Shown here: piece after piece, positions 504 to 62,622 of the stretch
Layout: every line of letters begins with the position of its first letter
Position numbering within the stretch: position 1 is the first letter of the stretch
Origin: a virus
Virus record (IMG/VR): IMGVR_UViG_3300002460_000024
Span: 1 to 64,000 of that record
Strand: one strand, 5' to 3'
DNA: 64,000 bases
The notes under the pieces: model-generated
Told to the model about the DNA's origin: nothing
Seen by the model: the letters and a program-made list of their open reading frames with translations, nothing else
Databases searched by the model: none
Program-made: the position numbers and the translations under genes

Positions 504-971
504 TTATGTTTTGTTTTTATTTGTTACGTGATTAATGTGGCGGCTGTACTATTGTTATATCCTTGAAATCTTTTACAAAAATTGGTTCAAAATGACATTT
601 TACCTTCATATCAATAGAAACAACCTGTGTAAACCTATCGGTGGATTCAAGTTTAAAAAGATCGTTAGTTAAAATAACCTTATGGGTGTGATTTTTAAAT
701 TCAAACCACCTTAAAATTCTAGGTCTCCGAGATATGATATTAATTGTACAATCCATTTTTATTTTTTTTTCTGATTTGATGACGAAATTAATAGGGTGGT
801 AGTTTTAACTTTAACAAGGATTTGGCCGCTTACAAGTCTTTCGATTTGGCATCCATTATGCCCACATTAATCTCGTCACAAAAAAACTCCCCCAAAACTC
901 TCACATAAAGGGGGAATATAACATAACATTTTTAAAGAACCTACATATCCTTAAACACAAATATTATCCTT

Positions 972-1358
972 TTATTGTGGAATCGCAAGTTTTATTTTTT
1001 CCTGGTATTCCTCCCCCATCGCTTTTATCTCCCACGGAGCCCATTTTTTAATGGATCTAGCTGCTAAAATAATCCCATCCACCACTTCATCCCCAAGCTC
1101 TAATCGAAGGTTTTTTTCGAAAATTTTCTGCTTTTCACCCCCATCAGAACAATTCAAATTACACCCAGGGCACTGCACCCGGCAATTATTCAACATAAAT
1201 CGCGTCGCCATAAAGCGCCTACTCATAAAGTGACCACACTGAGCATCCTCCCACCTTAATACTACAGGACAGGTATAACACTTAACCCTTCCTCCCTTAT
1301 CGGACCACAACAACCGCACGTACTTCGAAAAAATTCGATCCAGATTAATTACGTTCAA
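972..1358 (-). CDS. NinG/Rap-like recombination endonuclease
   Basis: LDRIFSKYVR, CYTC, QCGHFMSR, QCPGCN. Confidence 0.8.
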   Translation of the reverse strand: MNVINLDRIFSKYVRLLWSDKGGRVKCYTCPVVLRWEDAQCGHFMSRRFMATRFMLNNCRVQCPGCNLNCSDGGEKQKIFEKNLRLELGDEVVDGIILAARSIKKWAPWEIKAMGEEYQEKIKLAIPQ

Positions 1359-1604
1359 AATGGCGGTTTTTCCTCCTTAAATGTCTTTAAATCAAAACTA
1401 TCCAATTCATATTCCTTATCTTCTATCCGGTCCCATACATAGTTATAGTCTGATAATGAATTCCATACCCCTTTCTCGTCTATTAAAAGCCAATCGGTTA
1501 TTTCCTGAATACTATCAGCCGAAAACCTAACATCTCCCAGGCCTCCAGACGGGTAGTAGTCCGAAAAACAAAATAATAAATATCGTTTCATATTAATCTC
1601 GTTA

Positions 1605-1973
1605 TCAATATTTAAAACCTGTCCAGTAGATTATCTTTCCTACAAATGGCTTATCAAACCACAGCCAAAAATCCTCAACCGAATCAAACCCGTCATTTTT
1701 AGCCAATGCGTCCAAACCAACCTTATTAAACTTTAAAGTCTCACAACCATTCACCGTAATTGAAACCACCCTGTCTTCCGGATTAATCTCGATCCTCCTA
1801 TTTCCAGTACAGACCCCCTCCTTAAAACATTTATAGTTCTTTGTTCTAACCCCAGTAGCAAAGTGAATCTTTTTCCCTTCCTGCCACCTATGTTTCCAAT
1901 CCCCACGGATCGTGTGGATCTTCGTACCATTCAATATTTTCTCCACAAACTGTGGCTTAAACCCTAATACCAT
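1605..1973 (-). CDS. ASCH-domain protein
   Basis: FKPQFVEKILNGTKIHTIR (GxKxxxxR) and LAKNDGF motifs. Confidence 0.75.
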   Translation of the reverse strand: MVLGFKPQFVEKILNGTKIHTIRGDWKHRWQEGKKIHFATGVRTKNYKCFKEGVCTGNRRIEINPEDRVVSITVNGCETLKFNKVGLDALAKNDGFDSVEDFWLWFDKPFVGKIIYWTGFKY

Positions 1974-2375
1974 TACTCCCTATATTTAAGTTTATATTTT
2001 TTATAATACTTATCCCACAACACTTTATCTTCTTTTTCTTTAATAATAGCTTTTTGTTTATAAGCCTCTTCCAAATCAAAAATATCCTGCAAAATATCTA
2101 AATGGCTTTTTGACATATCTTGAGCAGTCAACACAATTGGAGCACCATAAATAGAAGATTGCCTACTAAAATCCAACGGCTTATCCCATCCAGGGTTCTT
2201 TTCCCTAAAATAAGCATCATGAACTTCATTTGGAATAGATTTGTATTTATGCTCCCATGGAAAAAAGACTGGATAACTATCAATAATCATATCTATCTCA
2301 TCAAAAAGTTTTCGACCAACAGGTTGTTTAAGTTGCTGCATTACCCAAACCCACTTAACCTCTACCGGAATACTC

Positions 2376-2759: not shown

Positions 2760-3640
2760 AATTACGGATATTATCTGACAATCACAACTTTATAAAGCAA
2801 AACAATAACTACACTGATAATCAAATAGATGAATCCATTCCCATATACGTCATTTAAAAAGAATTACTTAACTGTTTCTGTGAGGTTACTATAGGCAACC
2901 CGCCGGCCCCCCTTGCTCAGGGAAAAAAATCCCGAAACCCACCCCCCTCTCTTGAAACCATTGAAAACACTAAGGCATAAGAGCAAAGCACTCTGTAATC
3001 ATGGGCAAATCAGTAAAGATAAAGCACAAAGCTATTCTATTACACTACAAGAACATTAGTTCCAATAGTGTATTGGCGCTGAGCCTACAAGATAAAGCAT
3101 TATGATAAACTCAATTAGTCTGAAAGCCTTGATAACAAAGGGAAAGCTGTTGTTCTTCCTTCCTTCTAGCGAATTACCTTTTTATTTTTTTCAATTTAAA
3201 ATCTTTTAGTTTAGGCATTTCGTTGTGGAAATTGTTTACGCTTCTCTCTTTATGGTAGTCTCTGTGTACTGTTCTTATGGGTGGTTAGGGGTTTATATGA
3301 GACGCGATTAATATCAACCCCTTTGTTTTCGCCATTTTATCCTTTGATCTTAATTTAAGCGCCAGGCTATCTTGGTTTAATCTATCTCTCTAGCGGTGTT
3401 GGGAGGGTGATTACTTAGTATTGGTTCTTATTGGCGACGAAACTAATCTATAACTATCTGATTATCAACACTAATCTTCGTAACTTATTGATTATTAGTA
3501 TAGTTATAAGGACTTCAACCTCTCAACTTTAGTTAATAATGTGTTAAAGTAGGTATTTATTGGCGTTTTATTACTGTTTTTTGCAACATTTGATGTAAAT
3601 TAGCGTTAAATTAGATATAACAACTATAAAAACTCTCATA
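2760..3640. promoter_or_regulatory. Divergent intergenic control region at the strand switch
   Basis: About 0.9 kb without a long ORF between a leftward and a rightward gene block; compositional switch from A/C-rich to T/G-rich. Confidence 0.5.
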
Positions 3641-4425
3641 AAATGAAAGCAATCAAATCAAACGGAGTATTATTTCTAATTGGAATGATCTTCACAGGCC
3701 TAATAGCGTTCACTGCCTTAAATGGTATTCCTTTCCCTAGTTTTTAGGGGCGACGCAATTAATGTCAAGCGGCTACCTTAATCGGAGCCGCTTTTCTAGG
3801 TACAAACCATTAAATAAACTCACCATAACAGCTATGGAAAAGAAGATAATACAGACAACAGTCGGAGAGAATATTACAGTTGATAGACGTGAAATATTAA
3901 TCGACGACTTATTACAATGGATTGAAAAGGCGAAAGCTGAGAAAGCAACTCATCTCGAATTATATGCCACCTATGACTGGGATGATATGGATATAGATAT
4001 ATGGGCGTATTATAAATATGAAGAAACCGAAACTCAATGCGCAGAACGGTTACAGCGTGAACAAGATTATAAAAAGCAGCAGATATTAGAAAAGCTTGCT
4101 AAAGAAAAAATATTGTATGAAGAATTAAAGAAAAAATTTGAAGCATAACCCCTAAAATCCCGTCGCCCCATGAAAAACTTCTTTTATATAGTCAAAGTAA
4201 TAGAGTCATGCAATCTGCCCATTCAATTGGAGGCCTGCAGAACTATTATAAGCTGGTACAAAGAGCCTCAAGGTCGTAAATTATTAATGAGCCGGTGGGA
4301 AGATAAACTACATAGGCTAGAGAATTATGATTTAAGGCAGAGAGTAGTTTAATTTGTGACGGGATTAATCTCGTCACCCCAAAAATAGTATACGTTCATT
4401 TATAGGCTGAGTAGTTTAACAATTG

Positions 4426-4460: not shown

Positions 4461-4486
4461 ATTAACGACGTAATTAATCTGAAAAT

Positions 4487-5197
4487 ATGCAGTATATAGC
4501 GTACAGGCGAGTTTCAACGGGCAAGCAAGCTAAATCCGGTCTGGGTTTGGAAGCTCAAGAGGCTGCAATTCAACAAATAATTAAACCGGATGACGAGATT
4601 CTATTTTCATTCACAGAGGCCGAAAGCGGAAAGAATGATAAAAGACCAGAGCTATTGAAGGCTATTGCAGCCTGTAAATTACATGGGGCGACGTTATTAA
4701 TCGCAAAACTGGACAGGTTGAGCCGCAATGCATCCTTTTTATTCACATTAAGAGACTCCGGACTTAAACTGTGTATAGCCGATATGCCCCAGGCCGACGA
4801 ATTCATGATAGGTATCATGGCTGTTATTGCTGACTGGGAAGGGAAAAGAATAAGAACCAGGATAAAAGAGGCCCTGAATGCCAAGAGGTCCAGGGGAGAG
4901 TCAATGGGCACCGTCGCAAACCTAACAGGCCGGACTATGGGTAACGTCGCCAATAAACAAAAATTCATTGAGCGCCTAAAGCCTTATAAATCTACCATTC
5001 TATACTTTATTAAGGAGGGCTGGACAAACGACCTGATCTTCAAAAGAATGCCCGAATTCCACCCAGATTTTAAAAGGCCCTTTTTGGATCGTGCGGTTAA
5101 GCATGTTAGAAAGGAATATGATGAGACGCAATTATTGTTGAAAACACCACAACATACAACACCACATATATGGGATTTTTCCCAAAAGGCTGAATAA
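4487..5197 (+). CDS. Serine recombinase (resolvase family)
   Basis: YRRVST catalytic Ser motif, ESGK..KRPEL, AKLDRLSRN. Confidence 0.92.
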   Translation: MQYIAYRRVSTGKQAKSGLGLEAQEAAIQQIIKPDDEILFSFTEAESGKNDKRPELLKAIAACKLHGATLLIAKLDRLSRNASFLFTLRDSGLKLCIADMPQADEFMIGIMAVIADWEGKRIRTRIKEALNAKRSRGESMGTVANLTGRTMGNVANKQKFIERLKPYKSTILYFIKEGWTNDLIFKRMPEFHPDFKRPFLDRAVKHVRKEYDETQLLLKTPQHTTPHIWDFSQKAE

Positions 5198-5383
5198 CAT
5201 TGAATATTACGCATAAATCCTATGACCGAGAGGTGTAATTCCAATTTAAGGCCCAATAAAAAAGCACTTGAAAATAAAAGCACTTTGGATATTTAGGGGA
5301 AAAAGCCCTGAGATTAATTTCGTCACCCCAAAAGAAAAACGGGTACAAAGACAATATCTAAAATAAAATATAGTTTAATAAAA

Positions 5384-6298
5384 ATGAATAGTACATTAAA
5401 TAAATATCGGAACTTTCTCGGTGGTACATTTGAAAGACATTCAAAATATGGTATTACAAAAGGTATTATTGCCGATATAATATATAATCCCGAAAACTCC
5501 ACGGATACTATTTTTATAAAAAGCACAAATGGAGTGATCTATAAATTGGACGAAATAGCATATATGCTGCCTAACTTTAAAACCATGAAAACCTACATTT
5601 TAATTAAGGATTTACCAGAATGCAAGGCCGGTACAGAGTATCTAAAATGCGAACAACCAATAGGCGACCATTATTATATTCCGAGAGACGAGAATAATCC
5701 AACCCTAGCGGGGAAGGGTAAGATTTACGTAGCCGAAATAGTTGAAAACAACCCGGAATGGTTCAAAGAGAAGAAAGATTTCAATAATATTGACATAGAT
5801 CTTCTAGACGGATGCCAGCTAAAAAACATTATTGATAAAACCCAATTAACGGCCAGCGAAGCAATACAGGAATCAATTAAAGCCAATCAAAAGGAACTTG
5901 AAAGCGTTTTACAAGATGTTAAAAGAGAATCGGCTCGGGGTAAATATCATTTTGAAACCTATGGCTATTTATCTGATTACGCAATAAATGAGCTAATTAA
6001 ATTAGGATATGAAGCTAAGAATTTTAGAGATGAATTGCTTGGAAGTCCGCCAATATTTGGATGCTTTACTGGAATAGCTGAAATATTACGCTCTGATCCA
6101 ATGTATATAATTCGCTGGAAAGAAGATAAAGCCATTAAGCCGCCATTAGGAATAAAACCAATGTATCTTTGGAACGAAGAAAGGCTAAACGATTTAAGGG
6201 AGGCTATGAGAAAATATAAAGAGGCCGGATTGGAGCCAAGTCCAGAGTGGATGGCTGAAAAACAATCACTTGAAGCCTATTTTCAACTTCAACATTAA
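5384..6298 (+). CDS. Hypothetical phage protein (mosaic)
   Basis: 304-aa ORF with no recognisable catalytic motif. Confidence 0.55.
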   Translation: MNSTLNKYRNFLGGTFERHSKYGITKGIIADIIYNPENSTDTIFIKSTNGVIYKLDEIAYMLPNFKTMKTYILIKDLPECKAGTEYLKCEQPIGDHYYIPRDENNPTLAGKGKIYVAEIVENNPEWFKEKKDFNNIDIDLLDGCQLKNIIDKTQLTASEAIQESIKANQKELESVLQDVKRESARGKYHFETYGYLSDYAINELIKLGYEAKNFRDELLGSPPIFGCFTGIAEILRSDPMYIIRWKEDKAIKPPLGIKPMYLWNEERLNDLREAMRKYKEAGLEPSPEWMAEKQSLEAYFQLQH

Positions 6299-6363
6299 TT
6301 TCGTTGCCCACAATATCTAAAATAAATTTACGTTAGGGTATTGTATATCTCAAAAACCTGACT

Positions 6364-7630: not shown

Positions 7631-8849
7631 CAGACCCCGAAATAACCAACTTTGATTGGTTCGATATGAGTTCTATTGAGGCCACGACCGGTGAGCCGTT
7701 AACAGACAAACAAAAGTGGAAAATTATAACTTCTTTGGAAGCAATTGCCCTCCTTCCTCACCTCTTAACCAAAGAAGAGCAGATATTAGACCTTAAAAGA
7801 TTTTTATGGGCGTTCGGCCTTGTTGAGGGCGACTTTACCATTGAGGGGGTGCTCAAGGTAAATAATCCACTTTGAAGTATCAAAGTTTTTAAACTCGCAT
7901 TTTTGATTATTAATCTGTAGATAGACCTTTCCCTTTTCTTCAAAGGGATGGCCGCTGAGAAACTTTTTGGTATGGCGTAGAATAGCCCTTTTTTTCAAAG
8001 TCATTTAAAGCATCCCTAAAATTCCACTCTCCTCCCGTAATGGTGGTTCCGTCTGAAAATGTTATTCTATAATACTCATCCTTTAGGGTAATTTCGTGCG
8101 GTCTTAAAGCATCCCCTCTTTTTGTCCTCTTTCCAAAAAATCTTTTAAACCAGCCAAACTTAGCGTCTCCCCCAGTTGGTGTAGACTCATATATTGATAC
8201 CATAGTAATAATATTTACCCCAAATATAACCCTTTTATACTAAAATCTCGTCACCAATAAACAATAATACTACATTTGATACGTTTTTAGGGGTAACGCA
8301 ATTAATCTGAAATAATGAAACGTTCAATAAAATTCTGGATATTAATATTTATAGTTTTTAATATTCTTGTTACCGCCTTTGGATGGTATAAGATTCCCAC
8401 ATGGTTTAATGGACCCATTACGGCTGATAGTATTATGATTAGCCTTATGTATGTTTGTTTATACGCAATTGATGGTATGCTCCTATGTGTTTTACTTATG
8501 AATATTATTCCTAAATTTAATAAGTGGATAGATAAAAACAAAGCCCCAAAACATTAATCTCGTAGCATGATAGACTCTCCTCTCCCTCCTCATATAGAAG
8601 CCATGATGAACTGGCTCCTTGAATTATACTCTTCCAGGTCCCAGCTATATGGAGAATTAATACACCTGTGCGATCAGAAATTCGGGGAACCGTGTGAGTT
8701 TGCAAAAGCATTCCAAGATCAAGAAGAAGAAAAGGCAGCATTACAATGGTGGTCTTGCATTGAGTCGCTTTATGATTTAGAAAAGGCTCACATATTGGTG
8801 AGTAATTTAATTGGCAACGCCATTAATGTGAAAAAATGAGAATATTTAC

Positions 8850-8967
8850 TATATTTGCTGTGATTACTAATATTAACTATGCAAATACAAACTTTAAAAC
8901 CCCTTTGGCAAGATGCAGTAACATCCAAACGGTTGATATTGGTAATCCTTCTTGTCAGGGGGCTTTT
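8850..8967 (+). promoter_or_regulatory. Bacteroidota promoter plus leader attenuator upstream of the HNH gene
   Basis: TATATTTG at 8850-8857; 8862-8877 pairs with 8932-8947 inside the cccctttggcaaga/tcttgtcagggg-TTTT terminator. Confidence 0.7.
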
Positions 8968-8973
8968 AATTTT

Positions 8974-9531
8974 ATGAAGCCACACGAAAATTTTAGTTTA
9001 AAAGATATTCCCGGAGAAATTTGGAAAGATATTCCAGAATGGGAGGGCTTTTATCAAGTAAGTAATTTGGGACGAATTAAATCTTTAAAAAGAGTGGTGC
9101 CACACACACATACTGTATATTCTACACAAAAAGAAAAAATACTTAAACCGGCATCAGACAGGAAAGGATATAAATATATATGCTTATATCGAAACCATAT
9201 TAGTAAAATTAAGAAGGTCCACCGTTTAGTATTACTGGCATTTAAGCACGACTCCCCCTTAACAGTTAATCATATAAACGGTGTTGTAGATGACAATTCC
9301 TTAATAAACTTAGAATATTTATCTGCTATAGAAAACAGCAGGGCCTATCGTAGTTTAAGCAGAGAGTTACCTATGGGAGTTTATAAATATTTCAACAAAT
9401 ACATAGCAAAAATAAAAAGAAACAACAAAAATATTCATTTAGGAAGTTTTAATACAATACCAGAAGCTAAAAGCGCCTACGAAAAAGCCCGTACCCATGA
9501 ACCCACATCGCCAACAATCCATAGTAAATAA
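8974..9531 (+). CDS. NUMOD4-HNH-AP2 homing endonuclease
   Basis: EIWKDIPEWEGFYQVSNLGRIKS, VHRLV...VNHING..DDN..NLEY, HLGSFNT..EA..AY; start moved to the ATG at 8974 after the attenuator. Confidence 0.9.
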   Translation: MKPHENFSLKDIPGEIWKDIPEWEGFYQVSNLGRIKSLKRVVPHTHTVYSTQKEKILKPASDRKGYKYICLYRNHISKIKKVHRLVLLAFKHDSPLTVNHINGVVDDNSLINLEYLSAIENSRAYRSLSRELPMGVYKYFNKYIAKIKRNNKNIHLGSFNTIPEAKSAYEKARTHEPTSPTIHSK

Positions 9532-10024
9532 GCTCGGTTACGACCCTACGGTTAAGCCCAAAGTTGCCGTCGCATATCAGCTTTACAACACCAGAGTAAA
9601 CAAACTAATAATAACAGGATCTTACCCATTATGCAAGGCAATGATGAAGAAAGAGCAGCAACTAAACCCCCTGAGCACATACAGAATCCTACCCGTTTAT
9701 ACGTAGCCCATTTAGAAGGCCATTCATTTCGTTGCATAAAAGCCTTAGCCCCCTATGATACTGATATGCCAAAAGGAATGGCTGATAAGATTTGCGACGC
9801 AAACGTAAGATCCGACATTTTAGTTACTCCAGCCGTCAAAACCTACCTCATAAAGCACTTTGAAATCGAGAATGAAAAAGAACTGAACCACCTGGCAAAG
9901 AAATCAATCCAAAAAGCACTTTTATTTTTGTATAATATATAATAAATTTAATGGGCAATCGTTAACTTTATATGAGATTAATTACGTCGCCCATACGATT
10001 TGTTGCCTGTTGTGGTGGCATTCG

Positions 10025-10118
10025 GGCTAATGGATTGGGGCTTAACGAAGTTTGCTTTATACCAAAATTAAAAAATAGAAAAATGATAAAGCAAATTTTG
10101 TTTAAGCCCGTGTTAGCC
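10025..10118. repeat. attC-like hairpin 1
   Basis: ggctaat...gggcttaacgaagtttgcttta / taaagcaaattttgtttaagccc...gttagcc; one extra base in the right arm. Confidence 0.8.
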
Positions 10119-10188
10119 GTCTGTTTTTGTTTTATTATTTTTTGAGAGGGGAGAAAAAAAGTTTAAAAATTTTATTTAAAAAATACTT

Positions 10189-10911
10189 ATGAAAAACAAT
10201 TTAGAAAAGTGGAATTACTACTTGGAGTTACTGAATGAAAAGGCAAGTGCTTTTATGGACACGATAAATCCATTAGTGCCAAGCATTTTTTACAAAGTAG
10301 AGTTGAACGGCAAAATAAATGACTGCACCGTTTTAAACAGGCACTATTCATTTGGATTATACTTTAACGGCAAGAAGCCAACGAATAAGGACATTGAAAA
10401 AATTGAAGCCGTTTTTAATAGCGAAATAGTTTTTACACCGAAGATGGCTTACTTTGATTACTCCTATGTATGGGGCATTTATGAAGGCAAAGAAAGTATA
10501 TCTAAAACGGCTATACACGTAAAAGATGTTTTTGAAAATAGGATTGCGTTTTTATCTTTTGCAGAGGCGGAAATAAAGGCGAAAGAAATTATAGAAAAAA
10601 ATGCAGAGGAAAAACTATTTAAAGAAACGCACAAGAAGGATGCTAATTATAAATATACTGAAAATGGATACAAGTTTTTAGGATGGCAAAATGGATGGAA
10701 GCACGTTTACTTTGATGCTGATGGAAATGTAACAGATGACAAAACGAAGCAAAAAACATTTGGCTACCTGACTGCCGATTATCCTGAATATGGAAAATGC
10801 AGAGAGCAAAAGCATAGAACAATTGAAGTAAGCCACAACCAAAGAGGAAGTGAGAATACAGTTAGTTGCCCGATTTGTATGATATACTGGAAATATGATT
10901 GCAGCGACTAA
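10189..10911 (+). CDS. Cassette cargo, hypothetical protein with C-terminal Cys/His cluster
   Basis: 240-aa ORF; C..H...CPIC. Confidence 0.7.
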   Translation: MKNNLEKWNYYLELLNEKASAFMDTINPLVPSIFYKVELNGKINDCTVLNRHYSFGLYFNGKKPTNKDIEKIEAVFNSEIVFTPKMAYFDYSYVWGIYEGKESISKTAIHVKDVFENRIAFLSFAEAEIKAKEIIEKNAEEKLFKETHKKDANYKYTENGYKFLGWQNGWKHVYFDADGNVTDDKTKQKTFGYLTADYPEYGKCREQKHRTIEVSHNQRGSENTVSCPICMIYWKYDCSD

Positions 10912-11224
10912 CCTCTTAATTTTTTAAAAATAGGTGAGGGCCAAAAACTATGGGCGGCCTTTAGCGCCAAAGCCTGTGTTGCCCATAGCCTTAAATCACG
11001 AAAAAATTGAGTATGAAACTAAATAGGAAAGTAACATTAGAGCCAAAGACCATTAACCTAAGAGTTGAAGATAGAATGCTTAGTATTAATTATCGAATAC
11101 GGGATGACATTACAGGAATTGGATTTGGTGATACTTGGGTTAATTTTACTCCTAGCGATAAGTTGATTGAAATATTAAAAACAGAAGTAAACGAAGCAAT
11201 TAAAAACTATAAAAAATAAACACA

Positions 11225-11578
11225 ATGGGAAATTTAATTAAACACGCAAAGTTTGAACTTGAACTAGCTGATATGTTCAATGAAAAAGGAGATTTTTACG
11301 GAGGCATGACCGCTGGTGCAGTTATGGAATTGATTAAGGTTTTTGAGAAACAAGGACATTCTGGTGGTTCGGCTCCAGGAGTAATTGCTTTGTTTTCAAA
11401 ACTAGCAAACTATGAAATAATATTTAATAGGATGAAATCAGAAATTGAAAAACAATTTGGAGTTAAAATAACAGAAGCTCCATTTACATATTTAAGTAAT
11501 GTAAAAGAAAACGAACTTATTTTATCATGCCAAAAAGATTACAATAATATGATAATGGCTGTATTGACCCCAAATTAA
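11225..11578 (+). CDS. Cassette cargo, phage hypothetical protein (QGHSGGSA motif)
   Basis: HAKFELE...ELIKVFEKQGHSGGSA; flanked by ORFs 11007-11219 and 11585-11794. Confidence 0.6.
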   Translation: MGNLIKHAKFELELADMFNEKGDFYGGMTAGAVMELIKVFEKQGHSGGSAPGVIALFSKLANYEIIFNRMKSEIEKQFGVKITEAPFTYLSNVKENELILSCQKDYNNMIMAVLTPN

Positions 11579-11882
11579 ATTTATATGAGCTTGATAGAAT
11601 CAACTATTTTTCACGGAACTAAATACTCATTTGATAAGAGTAAATTAATCTTCGTTGGCTTTTCAGAAAACGGTCTTAACCTTGTTTTTGAAACAGCAGA
11701 AGTTGAAATTACTATTACCGATATGAAAGACAGAGAGAGGCAGTACAAGGATATTATTAATGTATGGAAAAGCTACAAAGGTGATTTATTTTAATTTTTA
11801 AAAAGCGTGCAGGCCAAATTAAAAAAAGTACTAAAGAAACGAGAGGGTGAGTTTAGCTCCTACCGAAATTGCTGGTTATTCG

Positions 11883-11976
11883 GGCTAACCTCCGAGGCTT
11901 TGCGTCAGTTTTAAAAATACCAATGAAAAAAAACAGAAAAGACATTTTTAAAATTGCGTTAAAGCCGATGTTATGC
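11883..11976. repeat. attC-like hairpin 2
   Basis: ggctaac...ggctttgcgtcagttttaaaaat / atttttaaaattgcgttaaagcc...gttatgc. Confidence 0.8.
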
Positions 11977-12023
11977 TTAGTATTTTTTATCATTTTTTGT
12001 GCGAGGGCTTTACCTAACTAACT

Positions 12024-12461
12024 ATGAAAGACAGAAACTTACCACATTCGGACAATTGGGCGACACCGCCTTATGTTTACGATAAACTTAATGAGGAATA
12101 CAATTTCAATTTCGACCCATGCCCTTTGAAGCATGATATCACGAAATGGGACGGATTGGAAATTGAATGGAAGGAACGGAATTTTATTAACCCGCCTTAT
12201 TCAAAGGATCTAAAACCAAAATTCATTTTAAAGGCGGTTGATGAAATGAAGAAAGGAAAACTTTGCGTGTTATTACTGCCCGTTTCGACAAGCACAAAAC
12301 TATTCCATGATATCATCTTGGCGAACGCAACAGAGCCAGTAAAGTTTTTCAAGGGCAGAATTAAGTTTATTGGACATAATACGAAGGGAGAATTGGTAAG
12401 TAACAAAAGCCCGATGCACGATAGTATGTTAGTTGTATTCGATGGGCGGGAAAAAAAATGA
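12024..12461 (+). CDS. Phage DNA N6-adenine methyltransferase (Dam-type), cassette cargo
   Basis: WATP, FDPCP, NPPY, LLLPVSTST..FH, GRIKF. Confidence 0.88.
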   Translation: MKDRNLPHSDNWATPPYVYDKLNEEYNFNFDPCPLKHDITKWDGLEIEWKERNFINPPYSKDLKPKFILKAVDEMKKGKLCVLLLPVSTSTKLFHDIILANATEPVKFFKGRIKFIGHNTKGELVSNKSPMHDSMLVVFDGREKK

Positions 12462-12474
12462 TAAAAAATATTGA

Positions 12475-12641
12475 GCATAACTCCGAGGCTTTGCGCTGAA
12501 TTTCCTCCCTGCGGGAGATTCCGCTTACCAAGGGATGTGCGAAGGACGGAAGATTGAAAGCAGGGAGGAAATTCATTTTTTAAAAATAGGTGAGGGCCAA
12601 AAACTATGGGCGGGCCTTTAGCGCCAAAGCCTGTGTTGCCC
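12475..12641. repeat. attC-like hairpin 3 (long frame C)
   Basis: gcataac...aggctttgcgct / agcgccaaagcct...gttgccc; inner stem tgaatttcctccctgc/gcagggaggaaattca. Confidence 0.8.
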
Positions 12642-12683
12642 ATAGCCTTAAATGCTAGATAAATAAATTTAAATAACGATAAT

Positions 12684-13537
12684 ATGCAGTATAGTCCAAA
12701 ATTGAAAAAAGCAGCAGAAGAAATAAAAGCAATACTTACGAAGTATGATATTGCTGGTGTTGTATTATTACATACTCCGGGGCATAGTGAATACTTATTA
12801 CGATTAGACCCGTCTTATTCATGTGCTAATATGAATGAGAAAACAGGCGAAGTAAGATTAAAAGCTACCGAGGCATTGCATGGTAAAAAGAAACGTGACC
12901 AAATGTTAGAAGATACTACAAATATGATTGTTTGTTTATCGGACGTAACCGCTATGCAGGCCATGAATCTTATTGAACTTCGTAAATTACTTGAAACTAA
13001 ATTTGAAATAATAACACAGGATAACGGGCATACCACCCATGATACACAAAACAATTAAAACAAAAATTATGAATGAAAAACAAATGCTACAGTCCGCAGT
13101 AAATGAACTTCGTGGATTAAGAAAACAAAACGAAATTATGAAAGCTCGTTTAGATATGTTCGATACTATGACAGCAATATTGCACACAGATATTGCAAGG
13201 CAAAACGGAGATGCAATGCACCCTGATATTGTTTATGAAATTGATAAATATTTAACTAACTTAGAAAAAGAAGCCACCAATGAAACCAATTAAATTTCCA
13301 GAGGTTAATAAAACCTACGCAGAAAATCAACCTGAATATTTGCCGTTGCCAGTATTTAAAGCAGATACCCCACAAGGCGAATGTGTTTCTTGCTGGAAAC
13401 TTTCTTTTCGTGAAAGGATTAGAATATTATTTACAGGCAAGTTGTGGGTAAGTCTGCTTACATTTAATAAGCCACTTACTCCTTCTTATTTTACAACGAA
13501 GAAATCGGAAGTATTAACCTTTTCAAAAAATGAGTAG
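12684..13537 (+). CDS. Three-gene cassette cargo (124, 84 and 85 aa hypothetical phage proteins)
   Basis: Overlapping ORFs 12684-13058, 13039-13293, 13280-13537. Confidence 0.65.
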
Positions 13538-13657
13538 CATTTTTAAGGGGATTTTTAAAAAAAGCATAGCCTCGGAGGTTGCCCACAAAGGCGTATGGCC
13601 AAGCACAGTAAAGCAAACGTTTTTCAGTTTGCGATGTGGTTGCCGTTTTAAGGTTGT

Positions 13658-13809
13658 GGGCAACGGTTTCGTGTTGCCGAAGTTGATGGCGAGAAGAAGG
13701 AATAAAGGGGCCTTTAGCGCCAAAGGCAATGCGGGTTTATTCGTTCTTTAAAAGCCAGAAACAAGGTCAAACTTTCATCCCATCAATTTTGAGCAACACA
13801 TTGATAGGC
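13658..13809. repeat. attC-like hairpin 4 (long frame A), GAT core
   Basis: gggcaac...gtgttgccgaagttgatgg / ccatcaattttgagcaacac...gataggc. Confidence 0.82.
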
Positions 13810-13950
13810 TAAGTTTACCGGGGGAGTTGCAGATACCTTTAGAAAGTTTGTCACGAAACCGATAGGCTAAATTTAGGATGAGAGGTTTGAAAATTAATTG
13901 GCGAAATTTTGTAAAAATTTAAAAAGTAAACTAATAAATAAACGAAAAGT

Positions 13951-14250
13951 ATGGGATTATTCAGTAAAACACCTAAAGTAGAATTGCTACCGTTAGGCCA
14001 TAAAGTAGAATTAGGTACTCGATTTTGGAAAGTTTTTGAAAGCAAAGTTTATGAATGTCATGTTGCAAGACTTTCAATAAGCCGTTCTGATGAATTATTT
14101 TTATCGCAGAACCCAAGTAGTAATTATGATGAAACAAAGTATTTAATTCATACTATTTGCGACAAGCATGTTGGTTGGTTTCACGAAGAGGAAGTGGTTA
14201 AGATGATAAAGTTTAAAACAAAAAAAGAACTTTATGAAAGTGATAACTAA
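13951..14250 (+). CDS. Cassette cargo, hypothetical protein
   Basis: 99-aa ORF inside frame A. Confidence 0.65.
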   Translation: MGLFSKTPKVELLPLGHKVELGTRFWKVFESKVYECHVARLSISRSDELFLSQNPSSNYDETKYLIHTICDKHVGWFHEEEVVKMIKFKTKKELYESDN

Positions 14251-14336
14251 ACCTTTTAGCAGCTATGCTGCCCCGCCAATTCTTTTTTTAAACAGAGCAG
14301 CCGTGTGCGGTTTTGGGTTGTGGAGAGGTAAATTTA

Positions 14337-14415
14337 GCCTATCGTTGACGGGTATGCGTTCGGTTTTGCTCCAAAAAATAACACGGCAAAACTGACGACA
14401 TACCCGATGTTACAG
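14337..14415. repeat. attC-like hairpin 5
   Basis: gcctatc...cgggtatgcgttcggttttgc / gcaaaactgacgacatacccg...gttacag. Confidence 0.82.
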
Positions 14416-14469
14416 GCAGTTAAAAATGGCTAAACGAAAATTAATATAAACAACTAAAACAAAACAACT

Positions 14470-14754
14470 ATGTGTACAGTATCAATGATTGGAGACCACT
14501 TCAATGACAAATGGAAACAACCATTTTATCAGCAAACTTTTACCAACATTCCCGAAATTACGAAGGCGGAATTTGATGCACTCAAAAAGGAAGTTGAAGA
14601 AATGAAAGCATTGCTAAAGAGAGCAAAGTTATATGACGAAAAGAATGGAGAACCGAATTGCGAAATGGATGAGAAGATGACAATGCTTAGAAAATTTGCC
14701 GAAGCAGTTGGTATAAGTTTGGACGACATCATTAAGAAACCAGATGCCAAATAG
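14470..14754 (+). CDS. Cassette cargo, phage hypothetical protein (MCTVSMIGD start)
   Basis: 94 aa; the stop codon lies in the terminal inverted arm of the cassette. Confidence 0.75.
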   Translation: MCTVSMIGDHFNDKWKQPFYQQTFTNIPEITKAEFDALKKEVEEMKALLKRAKLYDEKNGEPNCEMDEKMTMLRKFAEAVGISLDDIIKKPDAK

Positions 14755-14768
14755 CCATTTTTTATTGC

Positions 14769-14898
14769 CTGTAACCGGACAAGCCTTTATTTAGTGCGGG
14801 CTTAAAAGCACTAAGCAACAATTAAAGATAAAAGATTATGGAAAGCACAAAAGTTGATAATAGCACAGAACCCGCATTGAATAAAGGCATTGTTAGCA
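14769..14898. repeat. attC-like hairpin 6
   Basis: ctgtaac...gcctttatttagtgcggg / cccgcattgaataaaggc...gttagca. Confidence 0.85.
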
Positions 14899-15074
14899 GC
14901 AGTACGGCATTAGAACCGAAAGTTGTTAATCACGGGAATGTGTTTGGAACAAAGAACTGGTACACATTTTATTGCCCACATTGTGGAAGCCAAATAACAA
15001 ACAGAAGTGCAAATTGCGAAGGAAGTTATCCAATTAAAGGATGTAATGGGGCAATAAAATGGAACGAGAAGTAG
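14838..15074 (+). CDS. Cassette cargo, small Zn-ribbon protein starting inside the hairpin loop
   Basis: CPHC...C...C; ATG at 14838 lies between the arms of hairpin 6. Confidence 0.7.
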   Translation: MESTKVDNSTEPALNKGIVSSSTALEPKVVNHGNVFGTKNWYTFYCPHCGSQITNRSANCEGSYPIKGCNGAIKWNEK

Positions 15075-15080
15075 TATTGC

Positions 15081-15915
15081 TGCTAACGGCTGCGGAATAA
15101 CAGCAGTTTCTTTAGTACGTTTTAATTTTAAGGTGGGATTTTAAAAATAAATTATATGAATGGAAAAAGTTTAAAAGTTCAGAAAGCTGAAAAGTTTGTA
15201 GATGATTTTATTAAATCAGAAGGGCATACGCCCACCTACAATGATGTAAAAGAATACATGGGCTTTAAGAGCAATGCTCAAGCCTATGGTATTTGTGCAA
15301 AATTCAGAGATAAAATGAAGGCAATTACTAAAAACGAAAAGAGAATACATATTGAGATTGATGATGAAAACCAAATTATGGTTAGCCGAAAAGGATTTAA
15401 CAACTACGAGGCACTTGGAGTTTTAGAGGCTACCGTTTTGATGGTTAAAAATGAAATATTAATAAGTATAAACAAGGGTAAATAATTATGAATCAGTTAG
15501 ACATAATAAAAGAAGAACTCGAAGATTGCTATGATTTATGGAGTAGATTTAGTTGTGACTGCCTTCATTATTATATGCTATATCTTGAAAAAAGGAAACG
15601 TCAATTAGAAATCATAAACAATTAAATGTATGTACTACCATAACACTACTAAAAACCTATTAAACGAATCAGAGTTTGAAGATTTCTACTGGAACTACGA
15701 GGAAGGGGATTCAATCTTTAAAACGGAACGTGGAAATGCAATACTTATACCAATGACCTACGAGGAGGTAATTGAAAAGGCAAAGCATGATAATATAGTC
15801 GAAGAATAGTTCTTTTAATTTTTAAAAAGCGGGATGGCCAAATTAAAAAAAGTACTAAAGAAACGAGAGGGTGAGTTTAGCTACTACCGAAATTGCTGGT
15901 TATTCAGTGTTAGCC
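15081..15915. repeat. attC-like hairpin 7 (long frame B) with a gene-containing loop
   Basis: tgctaac...gaataacagcagtttc (15095-15110) / gaaattgctggttattc (15889-15905)...gttagcc. Confidence 0.75.
15156..15485 (+). CDS. LexA-N-like winged-helix DNA-binding protein (cassette cargo)
   Basis: FIKSEGHTPTYNDVKEYMGFKS; followed by small ORFs 15488-15625 and 15630-15809. Confidence 0.6.
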   Translation: MNGKSLKVQKAEKFVDDFIKSEGHTPTYNDVKEYMGFKSNAQAYGICAKFRDKMKAITKNEKRIHIEIDDENQIMVSRKGFNNYEALGVLEATVLMVKNEILISINKGK

Positions 15916-16060
15916 TGAGTGCCATGCTAATAGGTGAACGCAAAGCTAAACGAACAAGGAGTTGGCTTATTCCGCAGCCGTTAGCCCGAATCGGGTTGGC
16001 GCAACAAAGTAAAGTCCTCCATTTTAGAGGACGATTTGTTGCCTGTTGTGGTGGCATTCG

Positions 16061-16871: not shown

Positions 16872-16948
16872 CAGCTATGCTGTACCGCCAATTCTTTTTT
16901 TTAACAGAGCAGCCGTGTGTGACTTTGGGTTGTGGGGAGGTAAATTTA

Positions 16949-49483: not shown

Positions 49484-50269
49484 ATGAAATTCGACATTTG
49501 TATTCCAGTAAACAATAATCTTGACTGCCTCAGAGTAGCAATATATGGGTGGGCTACATATATACAAGATAGAAAGTCTATCCGAAAATTTATCCTCCAC
49601 ATTCAAAACCCGAGCGAGGAGCTTGATGCGGTCACCATTATAAAAGAATACGGATTTGACGTCGAGGTTGTTTCTTTGGGAACCCCACAAGAAAATATGG
49701 TTCATCCTATGAATCGAATGTTTAATGCCTGTCAAGCTAAATGGGTAGTGATGGCAGAGCAGGATGTTTTTATATGCGACGCGATTGATCGCATAGTTTA
49801 TGATATGGAAACCCAAGGCTTTATTGCCGCTGGCCCTATTGATACCTTCTATTACGACAACATTAATGCCCGAAACCAAACCGCCTACGGAAGATACGCA
49901 AGGCTATCTGGTGAGCCTGGACATTACCATTCATCTTTAGTTATTTTGAACAAAGATTTCGTCCCACCAAATCCTTTCACAATCCCCGAAGGATATACCA
50001 TGCATGGTGTTGGGCTTTTTGGAGGGGAGCTATACCACGGCCTCAGAATAAACATCGATAAAGATAAATCCAAACTGGCCTTTTTTAGACAACAACACGC
50101 AGCCTATGGATATGGGGCCGATATACTTTGGGGCGATTTAAAACTTGCCACTCATTTGTATTACTCCTCCCATCAAAAAGTTTATACCGATCCTGGGGGA
50201 CACTTAAATCACGATGAAGCGGCGTGGTTGAGAAATGAAGAAATTAGATTTTTGAAGGATTATGATTAA
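49484..50269 (+). CDS. GT-A/GT2-like glycosyltransferase
   Basis: FDICIPV, VVMAEQDVFI (ExD). Confidence 0.6.
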   Translation: MKFDICIPVNNNLDCLRVAIYGWATYIQDRKSIRKFILHIQNPSEELDAVTIIKEYGFDVEVVSLGTPQENMVHPMNRMFNACQAKWVVMAEQDVFICDAIDRIVYDMETQGFIAAGPIDTFYYDNINARNQTAYGRYARLSGEPGHYHSSLVILNKDFVPPNPFTIPEGYTMHGVGLFGGELYHGLRINIDKDKSKLAFFRQQHAAYGYGADILWGDLKLATHLYYSSHQKVYTDPGGHLNHDEAAWLRNEEIRFLKDYD

Positions 50270-50280
50270 TCTCGTCGCCC

Positions 50281-52065: not shown

Positions 52066-52727
52066 TATCTAAACCTTAGGTATTTAGAATTATCACTCAA
52101 ACTTTTTAAATACTTTAAAAATTGCGGATTAATCCCGTCGCCATTCCAATCACCCGTCGCTGGTGGAGCGCCTCCACCACCCGTTGCACCACCTCCGGCA
52201 CCACCATAAGAGTAATACCCTGCAATATCTCCAACGCCCTTCATTACATTGCTTGCTCCTGCTTGAATCAGTGCGCTTGAGGCTGCATTTTCAGAATCTA
52301 TTACATCATTCTCTCCAGCTTGCTTCATGTTCTGCTGGCCTGAATACCATTTTTGGGTATTGATTAAATTTTGTTGATTACTTGCGTAATACCTGGCAGC
52401 ATCCACCGCCAAATTCCTTTTAGCGCCTGCCTCTGCTCCGTAAATATTTGCCAAGGCCCCTATCCCGGCCCCTCCAGCCCCTAACTTCTCCAAAACCTTT
52501 GTGCTGTTGGCTGTTCTTTCTCCTAACTGGGTTTCGTAAATATCCTGACCCGGAAGCTTCCTTTGACCGGCTAAATTTTTAGCAGCATTAAGGGCGTCAG
52601 TAGCAGCACTCGGAATTTCATTTTTTTTCTTTTGGGCATCACCGGCCTTTACTGCTCCGGCTACCGCTTGGCCTACTCCAACTCCAGCAGCGATTAGTGC
52701 TGGTAACATTGCAAGAAATGCTGCCAT
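52065..52727 (-). CDS. Putative ejection/pilot protein
   Basis: Ala/Gly-rich hydrophobic N-terminus and Gln-rich coil. Confidence 0.55.
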   Translation of the reverse strand: MAAFLAMLPALIAAGVGVGQAVAGAVKAGDAQKKKNEIPSAATDALNAAKNLAGQRKLPGQDIYETQLGERTANSTKVLEKLGAGGAGIGALANIYGAEAGAKRNLAVDAARYYASNQQNLINTQKWYSGQQNMKQAGENDVIDSENAASSALIQAGASNVMKGVGDIAGYYSYGGAGGGATGGGGAPPATGDWNGDGINPQFLKYLKSLSDNSKYLRFR

Positions 52728-58445: not shown

Positions 58446-59248
58446 GCATCCTTGCCCTCCCTTGCAGCAGCCATTCCTTTCATAAATTGGGATCTTAAAT
58501 TTTCACTCATTAAATCAACTATTGCGTTGGCAAAATCTCCCCATAAATATTCTTTTACAATAAGCTCTTGAGATAAAGATGGGAAAGTGCCAGTGATTGC
58601 ACCAGTTCTATACACGTTAGCAGCCGTGGCCGTAAAATTTGTATCTGGTGGAATATAAACTTCGGTAGCCGTAGCCACAACTATATAATAATCATAAAAA
58701 GGCTGTGGAGGTGTTTTAAGGTACGCAAATCTTGCGCCCCCTATATCCTTTGGCCTAAACTCAATAACTCCGTTCTGGAAGTTGCAGTAAGGTTCAGCGG
58801 CCCCATTTTTATTCCTTGAGTAGTGGGTAAGGTATTCGCTAAATTGTTGGTCGGTGCAAACTTCGACTGCAGGCATTTTATCGTCATCACATCCTGGTTG
58901 TGCAAAAAATCCATTTAAGGCTGAGTAATGGAAGTAATCTGTCGGCAGCGTCGCAATGCCATTACTGTTAACACTTAATACACCAGGATCGTCCGGTCCA
59001 TTTCCTCCCATTACTACCTTTAAAGGTGATAAATCATCTGTCATTAATTGCGTCGTCTCAAATGCAAAATTTGGCATTTTTGTACCAGGAAGCCAGTTTG
59101 TTGGTATTCCGTATCGCTTATTAAGAAAAGTATAGAAGAAAAAAGGTAGATCAATATTAAGTTGATCAAGCCCATACACGCCTCCAGATTGCTCCTTGTT
59201 TAACCTTGAATAGGCGTGTTGCAATATGGAATCTAATGTCATTGCCAT
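58442..59248 (-). CDS. Tail ring/adaptor protein
   Basis: LNKEQSGG, LPTDY, YLKTP. Confidence 0.65.
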   Translation of the reverse strand: MAMTLDSILQHAYSRLNKEQSGGVYGLDQLNIDLPFFFYTFLNKRYGIPTNWLPGTKMPNFAFETTQLMTDDLSPLKVVMGGNGPDDPGVLSVNSNGIATLPTDYFHYSALNGFFAQPGCDDDKMPAVEVCTDQQFSEYLTHYSRNKNGAAEPYCNFQNGVIEFRPKDIGGARFAYLKTPPQPFYDYYIVVATATEVYIPPDTNFTATAANVYRTGAITGTFPSLSQELIVKEYLWGDFANAIVDLMSENLRSQFMKGMAAAREGKDA

Positions 59249-61407: not shown

Positions 61408-61446
61408 CTTGGAATAATTTTCTCAAATGTAATGAAATGGTTTTAA

Positions 61447-61478
61447 ATAATAAAGGGGCTGTTAAGCCCCTTTATTAT
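61447..61478. terminator. Bidirectional terminator
   Basis: ataataaaggggct/agcccctttattat perfect stem. Confidence 0.85.
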
Positions 61479-61479
61479 C

Positions 61480-62622
61480 TTATTTTTCTTTCTTTGGCCT
61501 ACCCTTTGGTTTGGTTGCTTTTGGCGACGCAATTAATGTGGTAGTATCTGCCGGAGGTGTGCTAGATGCCACTAATTCCGTTGTGGACTCCTCATTAGTT
61601 TCGTCACCCCAACCCATTAAGCCCTCTAATCTTTCTCTAGCTTCAATATCTAATTTAAGGAATGATATTAAGGCATTAACTTTAATAGGGGCAGCGTCAT
61701 CTACTGGGCAGAAATTGGCAATAATATTACCATTGCTCTTAATAACCCACTGTTTACGGCTGGTATCATGCTCAAGGATTCCTTTATCCACGGCCTCTGT
61801 AATCAGTTCCCGAAGTTCCTGGTCTGGGCCCTTTTTCTGACCAAGCAAAACAATATACTCGTAACCTTTGATCAACGGGTCTCCAGAAAGTACTCTAGCA
61901 CTTTCATCCTTGGCCGCCTCAAGCAAAATAGCTTTCCTTAATTGGTCGTTATTACGGTATTGCTTTAAAGGAAGGTTTAAAAATCTACCAATACTTTCAA
62001 GCTGTTCGATAGTAAAGCCACCGTCTCCAGCCTCTTCATTCACCAAAAACTCAGCTTTTCTTTTGAATCTTCCACCCATTCTTTCTGCTGTAGCATCTTT
62101 TTCTGGGGTGGTAATTTCAAAAATAAAATCTTTTGTTGTATTGGCGTGGGCATTTAAAGAGTTTTTCACTTTGCGGCAAATTACGCTCAAGAACCAATAT
62201 TTCTCATAATCCTGTTGTTCTAAAATAGCTGTGTTTTGTTTGTTGGTGCCCCCTATAGAAAAATAGGGCGGTTTAAAATTTTCCAATGTATCAATGGTAC
62301 GAGTGCTTTGGGTGGCCGTTTCGTAATACCTTACCTTGTGATGATCGGCTGATCGAGCATTCTTATTAAAATCAATACCGGCGATCATTCCCTTAAACTC
62401 ATCATCTTTTTCTGAGCGAAGGATGGTCCCATAAAATGTATCGCTAAACTCCACGTTTCCCATGTGGGGACCTACCGTAATTACTACATTTTCATCCTTG
62501 GTTTTGAGTTGAGAAAGAAGCTCTTTAGGGCTTTGAATATACCTTCCGTCACCGATTTCATCTTTTTGTTTTCTTGCATAGTCTGGATGCAGTGCATCTT
62601 TTTTACCATCTACTAATAACAT
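61480..62622 (-). CDS. Conserved protein downstream of the capsid gene
   Basis: Likely start MLLVDG at 62622, after a terminator and a TATATTTG box (62657-62664). Confidence 0.6.
   Translation of the reverse strand: MLLVDGKKDALHPDYARKQKDEIGDGRYIQSPKELLSQLKTKDENVVITVGPHMGNVEFSDTFYGTILRSEKDDEFKGMIAGIDFNKNARSADHHKVRYYETATQSTRTIDTLENFKPPYFSIGGTNKQNTAILEQQDYEKYWFLSVICRKVKNSLNAHANTTKDFIFEITTPEKDATAERMGGRFKRKAEFLVNEEAGDGGFTIEQLESIGRFLNLPLKQYRNNDQLRKAILLEAAKDESARVLSGDPLIKGYEYIVLLGQKKGPDQELRELITEAVDKGILEHDTSRKQWVIKSNGNIIANFCPVDDAAPIKVNALISFLKLDIEARERLEGLMGWGDETNEESTTELVASSTPPADTTTLIASPKATKPKGRPKKEK

Follow-up and report, generated by a model that had tools for sequence, protein, structure and literature searches.

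Recurring about once per kb on both strands of an uncultured groundwater phage (IMG/VR record IMGVR_UViG_3300002460_000024), a long asymmetric DNA word probably constitutes an array of docking sites for a candidate phage protein, selected at the DNA level. The single contig of this record (74,834 bp, 37.9% G+C) is, judging from its sequence, a phage genome, and the window referred to here is its first 64 kb (64,000 nucleotides). A small serine recombinase encoded near the left end of the window (4487–5197, plus strand) is the leading candidate for the reader of the word; the complete proposal, in which a phage-protein docking array is read by this recombinase and has a role in genome-wide occupancy, falls in our judgement somewhat short of even chances.

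Abundance and anatomy of the word

The window contains 14 exact matches to GGYGACGNNATTAAT, a number for which 100 dinucleotide shuffles predict 0.00, and 63 matches when up to two mismatches are allowed, against 2.83 expected and a maximum of 7 in any shuffle. Over the whole contig, 46 copies are found with at most one mismatch and 72 with at most two, compared with 7 for the pattern read backwards. A 29-nt position matrix, the source of the bit scores quoted for copies of the word, recovers 77 sites of at least 12 bits in the contig (63 of at least 16 and 47 of at least 20), whereas the same matrix finds 1.2 sites at the first threshold, 0.1 at the second and fewer at the third in third-order Markov sequences. 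Synonymous codons were also permuted within each gene, a shuffle that keeps the proteins and the codon use of every gene and leaves non-coding DNA unchanged; it yielded 34.6 ± 2.6 matrix sites (77 in the real contig) and 18.6 copies with at most one mismatch (46 in the real contig). Since the 24 sites outside coding sequences (CDS) survive every such shuffle, about 10 CDS sites are expected, whereas 53 are observed. A first-pass annotation made by eye had described a genome-wide motif with about 50 copies in both orientations and had suggested Markov and codon-shuffled backgrounds as a check; the motif is real, and its enrichment persists under both.

The full word is about 21 nt long and reads, in the matrix, tttTGGGGYGACGmrATTAATs, so that it extends beyond the version first described by a run of T plus GG on the 5′ side and an S on the 3′ side. 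It is asymmetric: ATTAAT is flanked by R on the left and by S, never T, on the right, and the right flank holds no mirror image of GGYGACG. The GGYGACG and ATTAAT blocks form a single unit. There are 50 occurrences of GGYGACG where 8.2 are expected; in 32 of them ATTAAT, or a version differing from it at one position (ATTATT, ATTAAA or ACTAAT), follows at a fixed distance, and every GGYGACG tail listed has an A at +9. The 40-nt sequences flanking the copies are no more alike (pairwise identity of 0.27 and 0.28) than random 40-mers (0.26); with flanks unrelated in this way, the copies are not a transposed repeat. A few copies are paired. The annotation had pointed to two full dyads around ATTAAT; both are present, the one at 4355–4378 (GACGGGATTAATCTCGTC, with the half-sites GTGACGGGATT and AATCTCGTCAC) being the sole perfect dyad and the one at 38144–38167 carrying one mismatch, and near-dyads lie at 29967–29990 and 37807–37830. 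No support was obtained for a hairpin that would place the copy at 9977 in its loop (z = −1.0).

Placement in genes and at gene junctions

Fifty-three of the 77 matrix sites lie inside genes, 12 run across a gene boundary and 12 are intergenic. The 24 non-CDS sites compare with 6.4 expected, an excess of ~3.8 times that lies above all 2000 random-placement trials; 10 of the 77 sites are within 30 nt of a gene end and 43 sit deep in CDS. The word can itself supply the signals at a junction, as the TAA within ATTAAT is the stop codon of several genes (6294, 8553 and 50265) and genes start at or right after copies at 3749, 1592, 21755, 4464 and 8292. Neither transcription nor strand appears to matter: within CDS, 26 copies point along transcription and 27 against it, junction copies are mixed in roughly even proportions, and the copies on the plus strand (45) and on the minus strand (32) are intermixed, so that a polarity along the genome was rejected. 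Even spacing was rejected as well, the distances being Poisson-like random (coefficient of variation, CV, 0.95). The analysis of spacing and orientation that the annotation had called for thus returns indifference to both, and its judgement that the motif is too frequent and too often intragenic for a simple operator is borne out and can be extended to orientation. A promoter for a host or phage RNA polymerase was also discarded, given the unbiased orientation and the variable distance to TAnnTTTG boxes (the −7 element of Bacteroidota promoters).

The density of copies peaks in the early region (2.3 per kb between 1 and 10 kb) and is lower in the gene encoding a 2939-aa protein and in the late genes. 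One stretch of 8.3 kb (9992–18244) is free of the word even at up to two mismatches. The corresponding gap between sites (8268 bp) is the largest in the genome, the chance of such a gap anywhere being P = 0.009. The stretch holds small plus-strand genes and has a slightly lower G+C content (0.34–0.36).

Probable selection at the DNA level and recent accumulation

Three lines of evidence support maintenance of the word at the DNA level, not via protein sequence: the peptides that it encodes, the codons that it imposes and the codon shuffle described above. Each orientation uses two reading frames, both avoiding TAA, which results in four unrelated peptide contexts (GDxIN, ATxLI, INxVA and LIxSP); the peptides INRVA, LITSP, IIASP, LIASP, LISSL and INSVA, read from the sequence in the first-pass annotation, were all found again. 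Copies are enriched in codons that the phage otherwise avoids (GTC, TCG, GCG, ACG and CGC), GTC accounting for 7% of Val codons genome-wide but for 12 of the 24 Val codons within sites.

The closest relative with readable DNA is the IMG/VR genome G406, whose large terminase subunit (TerL) is 55% identical, and 12 coding copies could be aligned to their orthologous positions there. Only one of them (59043) is common to both phages, the other 11 occurring in the studied phage alone. Some differ by synonymous changes, as in the peptide ATLL, encoded by GCG ACG TTA TTA here and by GCT ACT CTT CTA in G406, and others were made through amino-acid changes, with no indels at the sites. Both copies in the terminase gene likewise lie in alignable sequence devoid of indels, and at one of them Leu is replaced by Val (NYGL to NYGVA), a change seen in none of 21 homologues. 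As these are synonymous and non-synonymous point changes with no insertions, the word has accumulated by point substitution in this lineage. In strain contigs of the phage, none of the 40 differences considered out of 326 falls in the copy at 26087–26101, and positions 26069 and 26102 differ, a pattern that is not significant.

The comparison with relatives that the annotation had recommended therefore reveals little sharing. G406 and a second IMG/VR genome, G407, show a weak enrichment of the word with a looser outer block (15 sites at up to two mismatches against 4 for the control), and the word is at background level in G408, G409, G410 and ~50 other loci. G408 (locus L122; TerL 41% identical) possesses a dispersed 8-mer of its own, TTGGCGTT, with 18 copies in 22 kb against 0.5–0.7 expected, mostly in CDS, on both strands and in preferred frames; this record, 70% complete, yielded no recombinase homologue. 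Over-represented 8-mers in other relatives were rejected as comparable arrays, most of them being tandem coding repeats (L204, L206 and L176) or one-orientation words resembling ribosome-binding sites or promoters (L145 and L177). Closer relatives are known from proteins (TerL 71–78% identical, P0002–P0007; recombinase 75%, P0060). A megablast search against deposited phages gave no match, and no relative was retrieved when IMG/VR was scanned with either the putative capsid protein or the recombinase alone. Scans of JGI metagenomes and of GTDB found relatives only at TerL identities of at most 35% and at most 31%, respectively, the latter in bins of metagenome-assembled genomes (MAGs) of mixed phyla.

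Candidate readers of the word

Only two sequence-specific DNA-binding proteins are recognisable in the phage: the serine recombinase P0055 (4487–5197) and an HNH-NUMOD4 endonuclease (8836–9531, plus strand). The first, already named as a candidate in the annotation, is a reasonable one on the evidence of its domain, its catalytic residues, the adjoining dyad and its co-occurrence with the word, and we tentatively put it forward as the reader, at clearly less than even odds. It is a protein of 236 aa with a Resolvase domain (PF00239, E = 6e-24), YRRVST and DRLSR motifs, and catalytic residues (R8, S10, D76, R77 and R80) invariant in 25 homologues. Its AlphaFold model (predicted local distance difference test, pLDDT, 82.7) comprises a catalytic domain, a long helix E and a three-helix C-terminal domain, and aligns over its full length to the DNA-bound Sin, gamma-delta and Tn3 resolvases (2r0q, 1gdt and 5cy1). 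Two copies that overlap (25.6 and 33.1 bits) form the perfect dyad, which is situated 110 bp upstream of the recombinase start codon, and a lone half-site (4464–4478, plus strand, 22.6 bits) lies 9 nt upstream of the ATG; the region just upstream of the gene is the usual place of a resolvase's own site. A further copy lies within the gene itself (4687–4701, plus strand, 25.7 bits) and is the one with the synonymous ATLL codons mentioned above. An orthologue of the recombinase (58% identity) occurs in G406 and G407, the sole relatives with any enrichment of the word, while G408 and G410 have neither orthologue nor enrichment and G409 shares the catalytic domain only. Given the shared descent of G406 and G407, this co-occurrence counts as one phylogenetic event.

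The HNH-NUMOD4 protein, a second candidate for reader or for nickase, has an AP2 match below the Pfam cut-off and was not found in the five relatives searched. An XRE protein, which the annotation had also listed, did not turn up in Pfam or PHROGs among the proteins scanned, and the same two resources revealed no repressor-like protein among ~50 proteins, most early proteins matching nothing. A search of the genome for ParB_N (PF02195) returned nothing while controls matched; a ParB-type reader was rejected as far as Pfam sees, the word being moreover asymmetric. Atlas look-ups with protein P0058 and with the C-terminus of the recombinase provided weak leads to small helical or helix-turn-helix folds.

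A possible mechanism for genome-wide docking

Under the interpretation that we favour, a sequence-specific DNA-binding protein encoded by the phage would dock on the word, and selection on the DNA would keep the array in place in the core genome. Resolvases read the outer motif of their sites with the DNA-binding domain, place an AT-hook and helix E in the central minor groove, and show sequence preference in the spacer (PMC9943657). A recombinase subunit could accordingly be imagined with its C-terminal helical domain on the 7-bp GC-rich outer block, two free base pairs, and its linker and helix E in the minor groove of the AT-rich palindromic centre. At the three or four dyads a recombinase dimer may sit, and perhaps recombine or autoregulate. 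At the ~70 lone half-sites docking would involve a single subunit, or a dimer one contact of which is non-specific, and in the absence of a partner site the half-site would act solely as an occupancy mark. The role that we favour is occupancy of the phage's own core DNA, which would mark it as self or else act, whatever the orientation, as a roadblock or silencer, with the putative mobile cassette region (9992–18244) staying unoccupied. Occupancy useful wherever it occurs would account for the indifference to strand, frame, direction and spacing, and it would also explain the excess of copies where sequence is cheap to change and their absence from DNA that comes and goes. A bolder version, which we regard as highly unlikely, has a resolvase-type recombinase recruited as the reader of a genome-wide mark of self: half-sites would load single subunits, the core would be shielded from insertion and rearrangement, or modular exchange between co-infecting relatives would be guided, and the unmarked 8-kb region would be open to gene traffic.

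The comparison with known small serine recombinase sites (res site I of Tn3 and gamma-delta, Sin, and hix/gix; PMC9943657, PMC2428073) illustrates both the appeal of this proposal and its difficulties. Like them, the word has an AT-rich centre separated by free base pairs from a specific outer block, and perfect inverted 12-bp half-sites surround a central TA just upstream of a resolvase-type gene. Those systems, by contrast, have 2–6 dimer sites per replicon, whereas the studied phage has ~70 lone half-sites through coding DNA and a word that reaches further out. Several points accordingly weigh against the recombinase and an occupancy role. The word extends 13–20 bp from the ATTAAT centre (the T-run plus GG), beyond the usual contacts of a resolvase subunit, and the asymmetric flanks of ATTAAT suggest a monomer with several modules rather than a dimer. 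Known small serine recombinases use a handful of sites, not 50–77, and we know of no resolvase with such an array. G406 has a recombinase orthologue, yet it shows only the modest site count given above and no dyad upstream of the gene, a pattern indicating that the recombinase alone does not explain the burst in the studied phage. Any early protein that matches nothing in Pfam or PHROGs could be the true reader, and ~70 potentially recombinogenic sites would endanger the genome if active.

Alternative explanations

The word could instead serve a small phage repressor that binds it as a monomer and silences the genome in a temperate or plasmid-prophage state, leaving the putative cassette region free for expression. 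We consider this unlikely, although the resemblance to the operators and stoperators of Cluster A mycobacteriophages, or to the dispersed P1 C1 operators, is real: the word is asymmetric, has dozens of dispersed copies and is in excess at junctions, several copies adjoin TAnnTTTG boxes (8241/8292, 18245, 21460 and 38144), the best copy overlaps the start of the first gene in the rightward early operon, and the gene content looks lambdoid (NinG, Erf, YqaJ, DnaB, a Lin1244-type initiator and a resolvase). In Cluster A phages, whose sites are read by an L5 gp71-type repressor as the word studied here is presumably read by one phage protein, reversal of the site in L5 abolishes function (PMC9283540). 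Here, in contrast, orientation ignores transcription both in CDS and at junctions, more than half of the sites (43/77) are deep in genes, and neither an integrase nor a gp71-like or other repressor was found in the Pfam and PHROGs scans of ~50 proteins. The word is also longer than a stoperator (~21 versus 13 bp) and two to three times more numerous; in common with that group, an asymmetric site is present in more than 20 dispersed copies (47 of at least 20 bits, 77 of at least 12), whereas neither the promoter and intergenic placement nor the orientation rule is observed. Quite unlikely, in our view, is a signal spread over the host chromosome (similar to an uptake sequence, to Chi or to a nucleoid-protein site) that the phage mimics or has acquired by amelioration. 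The likeness to the DNA uptake sequences (DUS) and uptake signal sequences (USS) of Neisseriaceae and Pasteurellaceae is considerable: ~1 copy per kb, both orientations, a mixture of genic copies in tolerated frames and an intergenic excess, random spacing, occasional inverted pairs and absence from recently acquired DNA; the distinct 8-mer of G408 is also what host-specific words would be expected to look like. Uptake sequences, however, are words of bacterial chromosomes tied to competence, whereas this one is phage-borne and not enriched in the bacterial genomes searched. Across 401 evenly sampled Bacteroidota genomes the exact pattern has at most 5 copies per genome, equal to the reversed control, and it has 0 copies in five MAGs with distant kin of the phage; the word is besides far longer than any Chi. 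The true host probably lies outside this sample, which makes the counts weak evidence against a host word. The annotation had left open whether a phage or a host protein selects the site; selection at the DNA level is supported, and the phage is favoured over the host as far as these 401 genomes and five MAGs show.

Recognition by a phage nicking enzyme, for example the HNH-NUMOD4-AP2 protein, would leave the packaged DNA with localized interruptions in one strand, like that of T5, phiKMV-like phages and Pseudomonas phage tf. Modular HNH endonucleases read long asymmetric multi-part words, the HNH gene is confined, among the phage and the five relatives searched, to the one with the burst, and known nick motifs are conserved consensus words of 7–20 nt repeated through phage genes, their function not known (PMC3517423). 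Every system described nicks one strand only, however, and has 4–14 sites (PMC3517423), as opposed to the 50–77 copies on both strands here; with the AP2 match below the cut-off in addition, a nickase appears decidedly unlikely. Extremely doubtful is a drive that needs no functional reader, in which sequence-biased repair or conversion, for instance by a Vsr-like protein acting on heteroduplexes, pushes near-matches to the consensus. Very-short-patch repair does bias oligonucleotide content in E. coli, copies of the word do arise by point changes from partial matches in a lineage-specific burst, and the phage has a recombination module of its own and a 152-aa protein (27017–27475) with a borderline match to DUF559, a Vsr-like endonuclease fold. 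That match scores 20.0 bits, under the cut-off of 20.6, and known very-short-patch systems read ~5 bp with small effects, a context of 15–21 bp being unprecedented. Operator arrays of the KorB/ParB type also offer a genome-wide docking word in a phage, partly intragenic, but their sites are palindromic (13–16 bp) and bound by a ParB_N protein, in contrast to the asymmetric, randomly spaced word and the genome devoid of detectable ParB_N found here. Finally, the probability of an artefact of compositional bias, a protein repeat or a short mobile repeat is practically nil: all that speaks for it is the GGCGAC-containing hexamer tandem repeat at the contig ends, whereas dinucleotide, Markov and codon shuffles all fall short of the counts, and the four peptide contexts, the unrelated flanks and the lack of indels relative to homologues contradict it. 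A mobile repeat in particular, of the miniature inverted-repeat transposable element (MITE) or repetitive extragenic palindromic (REP) type, was rejected on a flank identity equal to random and on the absence of indels in TerL and in the 12 orthologous comparisons.

Implications for phage genome evolution

Dispersed protein-docking words are known in phages from few models, such as the L5 stoperators and the P1 C1 operators, where they lie between genes and point with transcription. The word studied here stands apart in its density and length, its mostly intragenic location and its blindness to orientation; it has also expanded recently, through substitutions, and is possibly linked to a resolvase. 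Within a short evolutionary time, coding DNA has taken up this longer, asymmetric word at ~1 copy per kb, at the cost of rare codons and of amino-acid changes in conserved proteins. As strand and position are immaterial, the benefit would depend solely on the presence of the word in the DNA, a type of constraint more familiar in bacterial uptake sequences than in viruses. Identification of the reader would show what is gained from marking the whole core genome and why the putative cassette region is exempt. Should it be the resolvase, a non-recombination role would emerge for that enzyme family, and should the self-mark idea prove true, it would add a novel function for a site-specific recombinase and a novel form of partition of a viral genome. 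Such words constrain the evolution of phage proteins, and they could help to link metagenomic fragments of phages from one lineage.

Genome organisation and probable host

The phage is present in groundwater and soil metagenomes from six studies. A crude gene call gave 109 open reading frames (ORFs) and 93% coding DNA. Terminase and portal bear a distant likeness to those of Cellulophaga and Flavobacterium podoviruses, and the phage also encodes virion proteins, the 2939-aa protein, GroES, GroEL, Erf and a YqaJ-type exonuclease, together with a NinG-like protein, DnaB, a Lin1244-type initiator and a GH108 lysozyme. TAnnTTTG boxes lie at most 120 nt upstream of 23 gene starts, including those of the portal, the putative capsid gene and the 2939-aa gene (for example at 67785, 65361, 61424, 52744, 47124 and 38093). 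Named homologues of the phage recombinase belong almost all to Bacteroidota. Since the kin of the phage infect this phylum and both the boxes and the recombinase homologues point to it, the host is likely a member of Bacteroidota.

The same hexamer tandem repeat (GGCTAC/GGCGAC) occurs at both ends of the contig (window 1–110 and contig 74740–74834), suggesting a circularly closed assembly, which the contig probably is. The repeat encodes a G-Y-G-D repeat on the minus strand, and one gene bridges the contig ends.

Individual copies along the genome

Near the left end, two non-coding copies (778–792, plus strand, 20.8 bits; 866–880, minus strand, 26.3 bits) precede one within the NinG-like gene (1195–1209, minus strand, 25.2 bits). 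A non-coding region of almost 900 bp (2760–3640) separates the divergent early operons and contains three plus-oriented copies; a plus-strand copy at 3433–3447 (24.8 bits) lies in this divergent intergenic region (~1 kb). The best copy of the genome (3749–3763, plus strand, 34.8 bits) provides, through ATTAATG, the start codon of the gene at 3762–4148, and a 34-aa hydrophobic ORF (3643–3747) stops just short of it. Downstream of the recombinase gene follow a minus-strand copy at 5313–5327 (31.7 bits) and another at 6294–6308 (28.2 bits), the TAA of which is the stop of the gene at 5384–6298. On the plus strand, the copy at 8292–8306 (29.6 bits) is 13 nt downstream of a TAnnTTTG box and that at 8813–8827 (25.8 bits) is 8 nt upstream of the HNH gene start. 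A minus-strand copy at 9977–9991 (30.9 bits) is the last before the word-free stretch, which another minus-strand copy (18245–18259, 22.4 bits) closes.

To the right of this stretch, a plus-strand copy in CDS encodes INRVA (18801–18815, 31.9 bits), and two copies mark gene boundaries (21460–21474, plus strand, 25.4 bits; 21755–21769, minus strand, 27.2 bits), an ATG directly following the second. The next is intergenic (22464–22478, plus strand, 29.0 bits) and another lies 3 nt into a gene start (22726–22740, minus strand, 20.9 bits). Copies within the Erf-like gene (23044–23058, plus strand, 29.0 bits) and the YqaJ-like gene (24901–24915, plus strand, 27.8 bits) encode LITSP and IIASP, respectively, and two more are in CDS at 26087–26101 (plus strand, 23.2 bits) and 27811–27825 (minus strand, 23.7 bits). 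The near-dyad at 29967–29990 (16.8 and 20.8 bits) is within the gene at 29669–31348, and minus-strand CDS copies follow at 30051–30065 (21.3 bits) and 30522–30536 (29.9 bits). Three plus-strand copies lie close to gene ends or starts: one 3 nt from a gene end, encoding INSVA (31816–31830, 22.8 bits), one 20 nt into a gene start, encoding LISSL (34713–34727, 20.9 bits), and one across a start/stop junction (34747–34761, 19.4 bits). The GroEL gene contains a plus-strand copy (36269–36283, 22.8 bits), and the CDS copy at 37807–37821 (plus strand, 23.4 bits) forms its near-dyad together with 37816–37830. The dyad with one mismatch (28.7 and 25.2 bits) occupies the junction upstream of the gene at 37063–38076.

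The 2939-aa gene holds plus-strand copies at 45072–45086 (22.4 bits) and 46160–46174 (24.9 bits), and a divergent intergenic region one at 47591–47605 (plus strand, 29.7 bits). Then come a CDS copy (49775–49789, plus strand, 21.4 bits) and a copy whose TAA is the stop of the gene at 49484–50269 (50265–50279, minus strand, 28.5 bits). The other copies listed here are all in CDS: 52128–52142 (minus strand, 25.5 bits), 59043–59057 (minus strand, 23.7 bits; the sole alignable CDS copy that is also at the same place in G406), 61523–61537 (plus strand, 30.0 bits, encoding LIASP) and 61594–61608 (minus strand, 24.4 bits). The seven positions that the annotation had singled out at gene junctions (3749, 9977, 21460, 21755, 22464, 34747 and 50265) are all among the sites listed here.

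Some other features of the genome deserve mention. The GroES gene (Cpn10, E = 4e-20) adjoins the GroEL gene (phrog_5725, E = 1e-141) at 34969–36934, and the cluster at 29669–34747 encodes a GT9-like glycosyltransferase (559 aa), a 204-aa Methyltransf_24 protein and a 712-aa protein with two Methyltransf_24 domains, which PHROGs assigns to DNA methyltransferases and Pfam places among O-methyltransferases. A strain variant lacks exactly the gene at 26422–26826, a contig of run X6 joining 26420 to 26822 with a 9-nt overlap. At 22410–22446, 23914–23950 and 25001–25037, contigs of several runs match over ~36 bp and then continue on either side in differing, unlike sequence; these contigs are probably diverged relatives and not spacers of clustered regularly interspaced short palindromic repeats (CRISPR).

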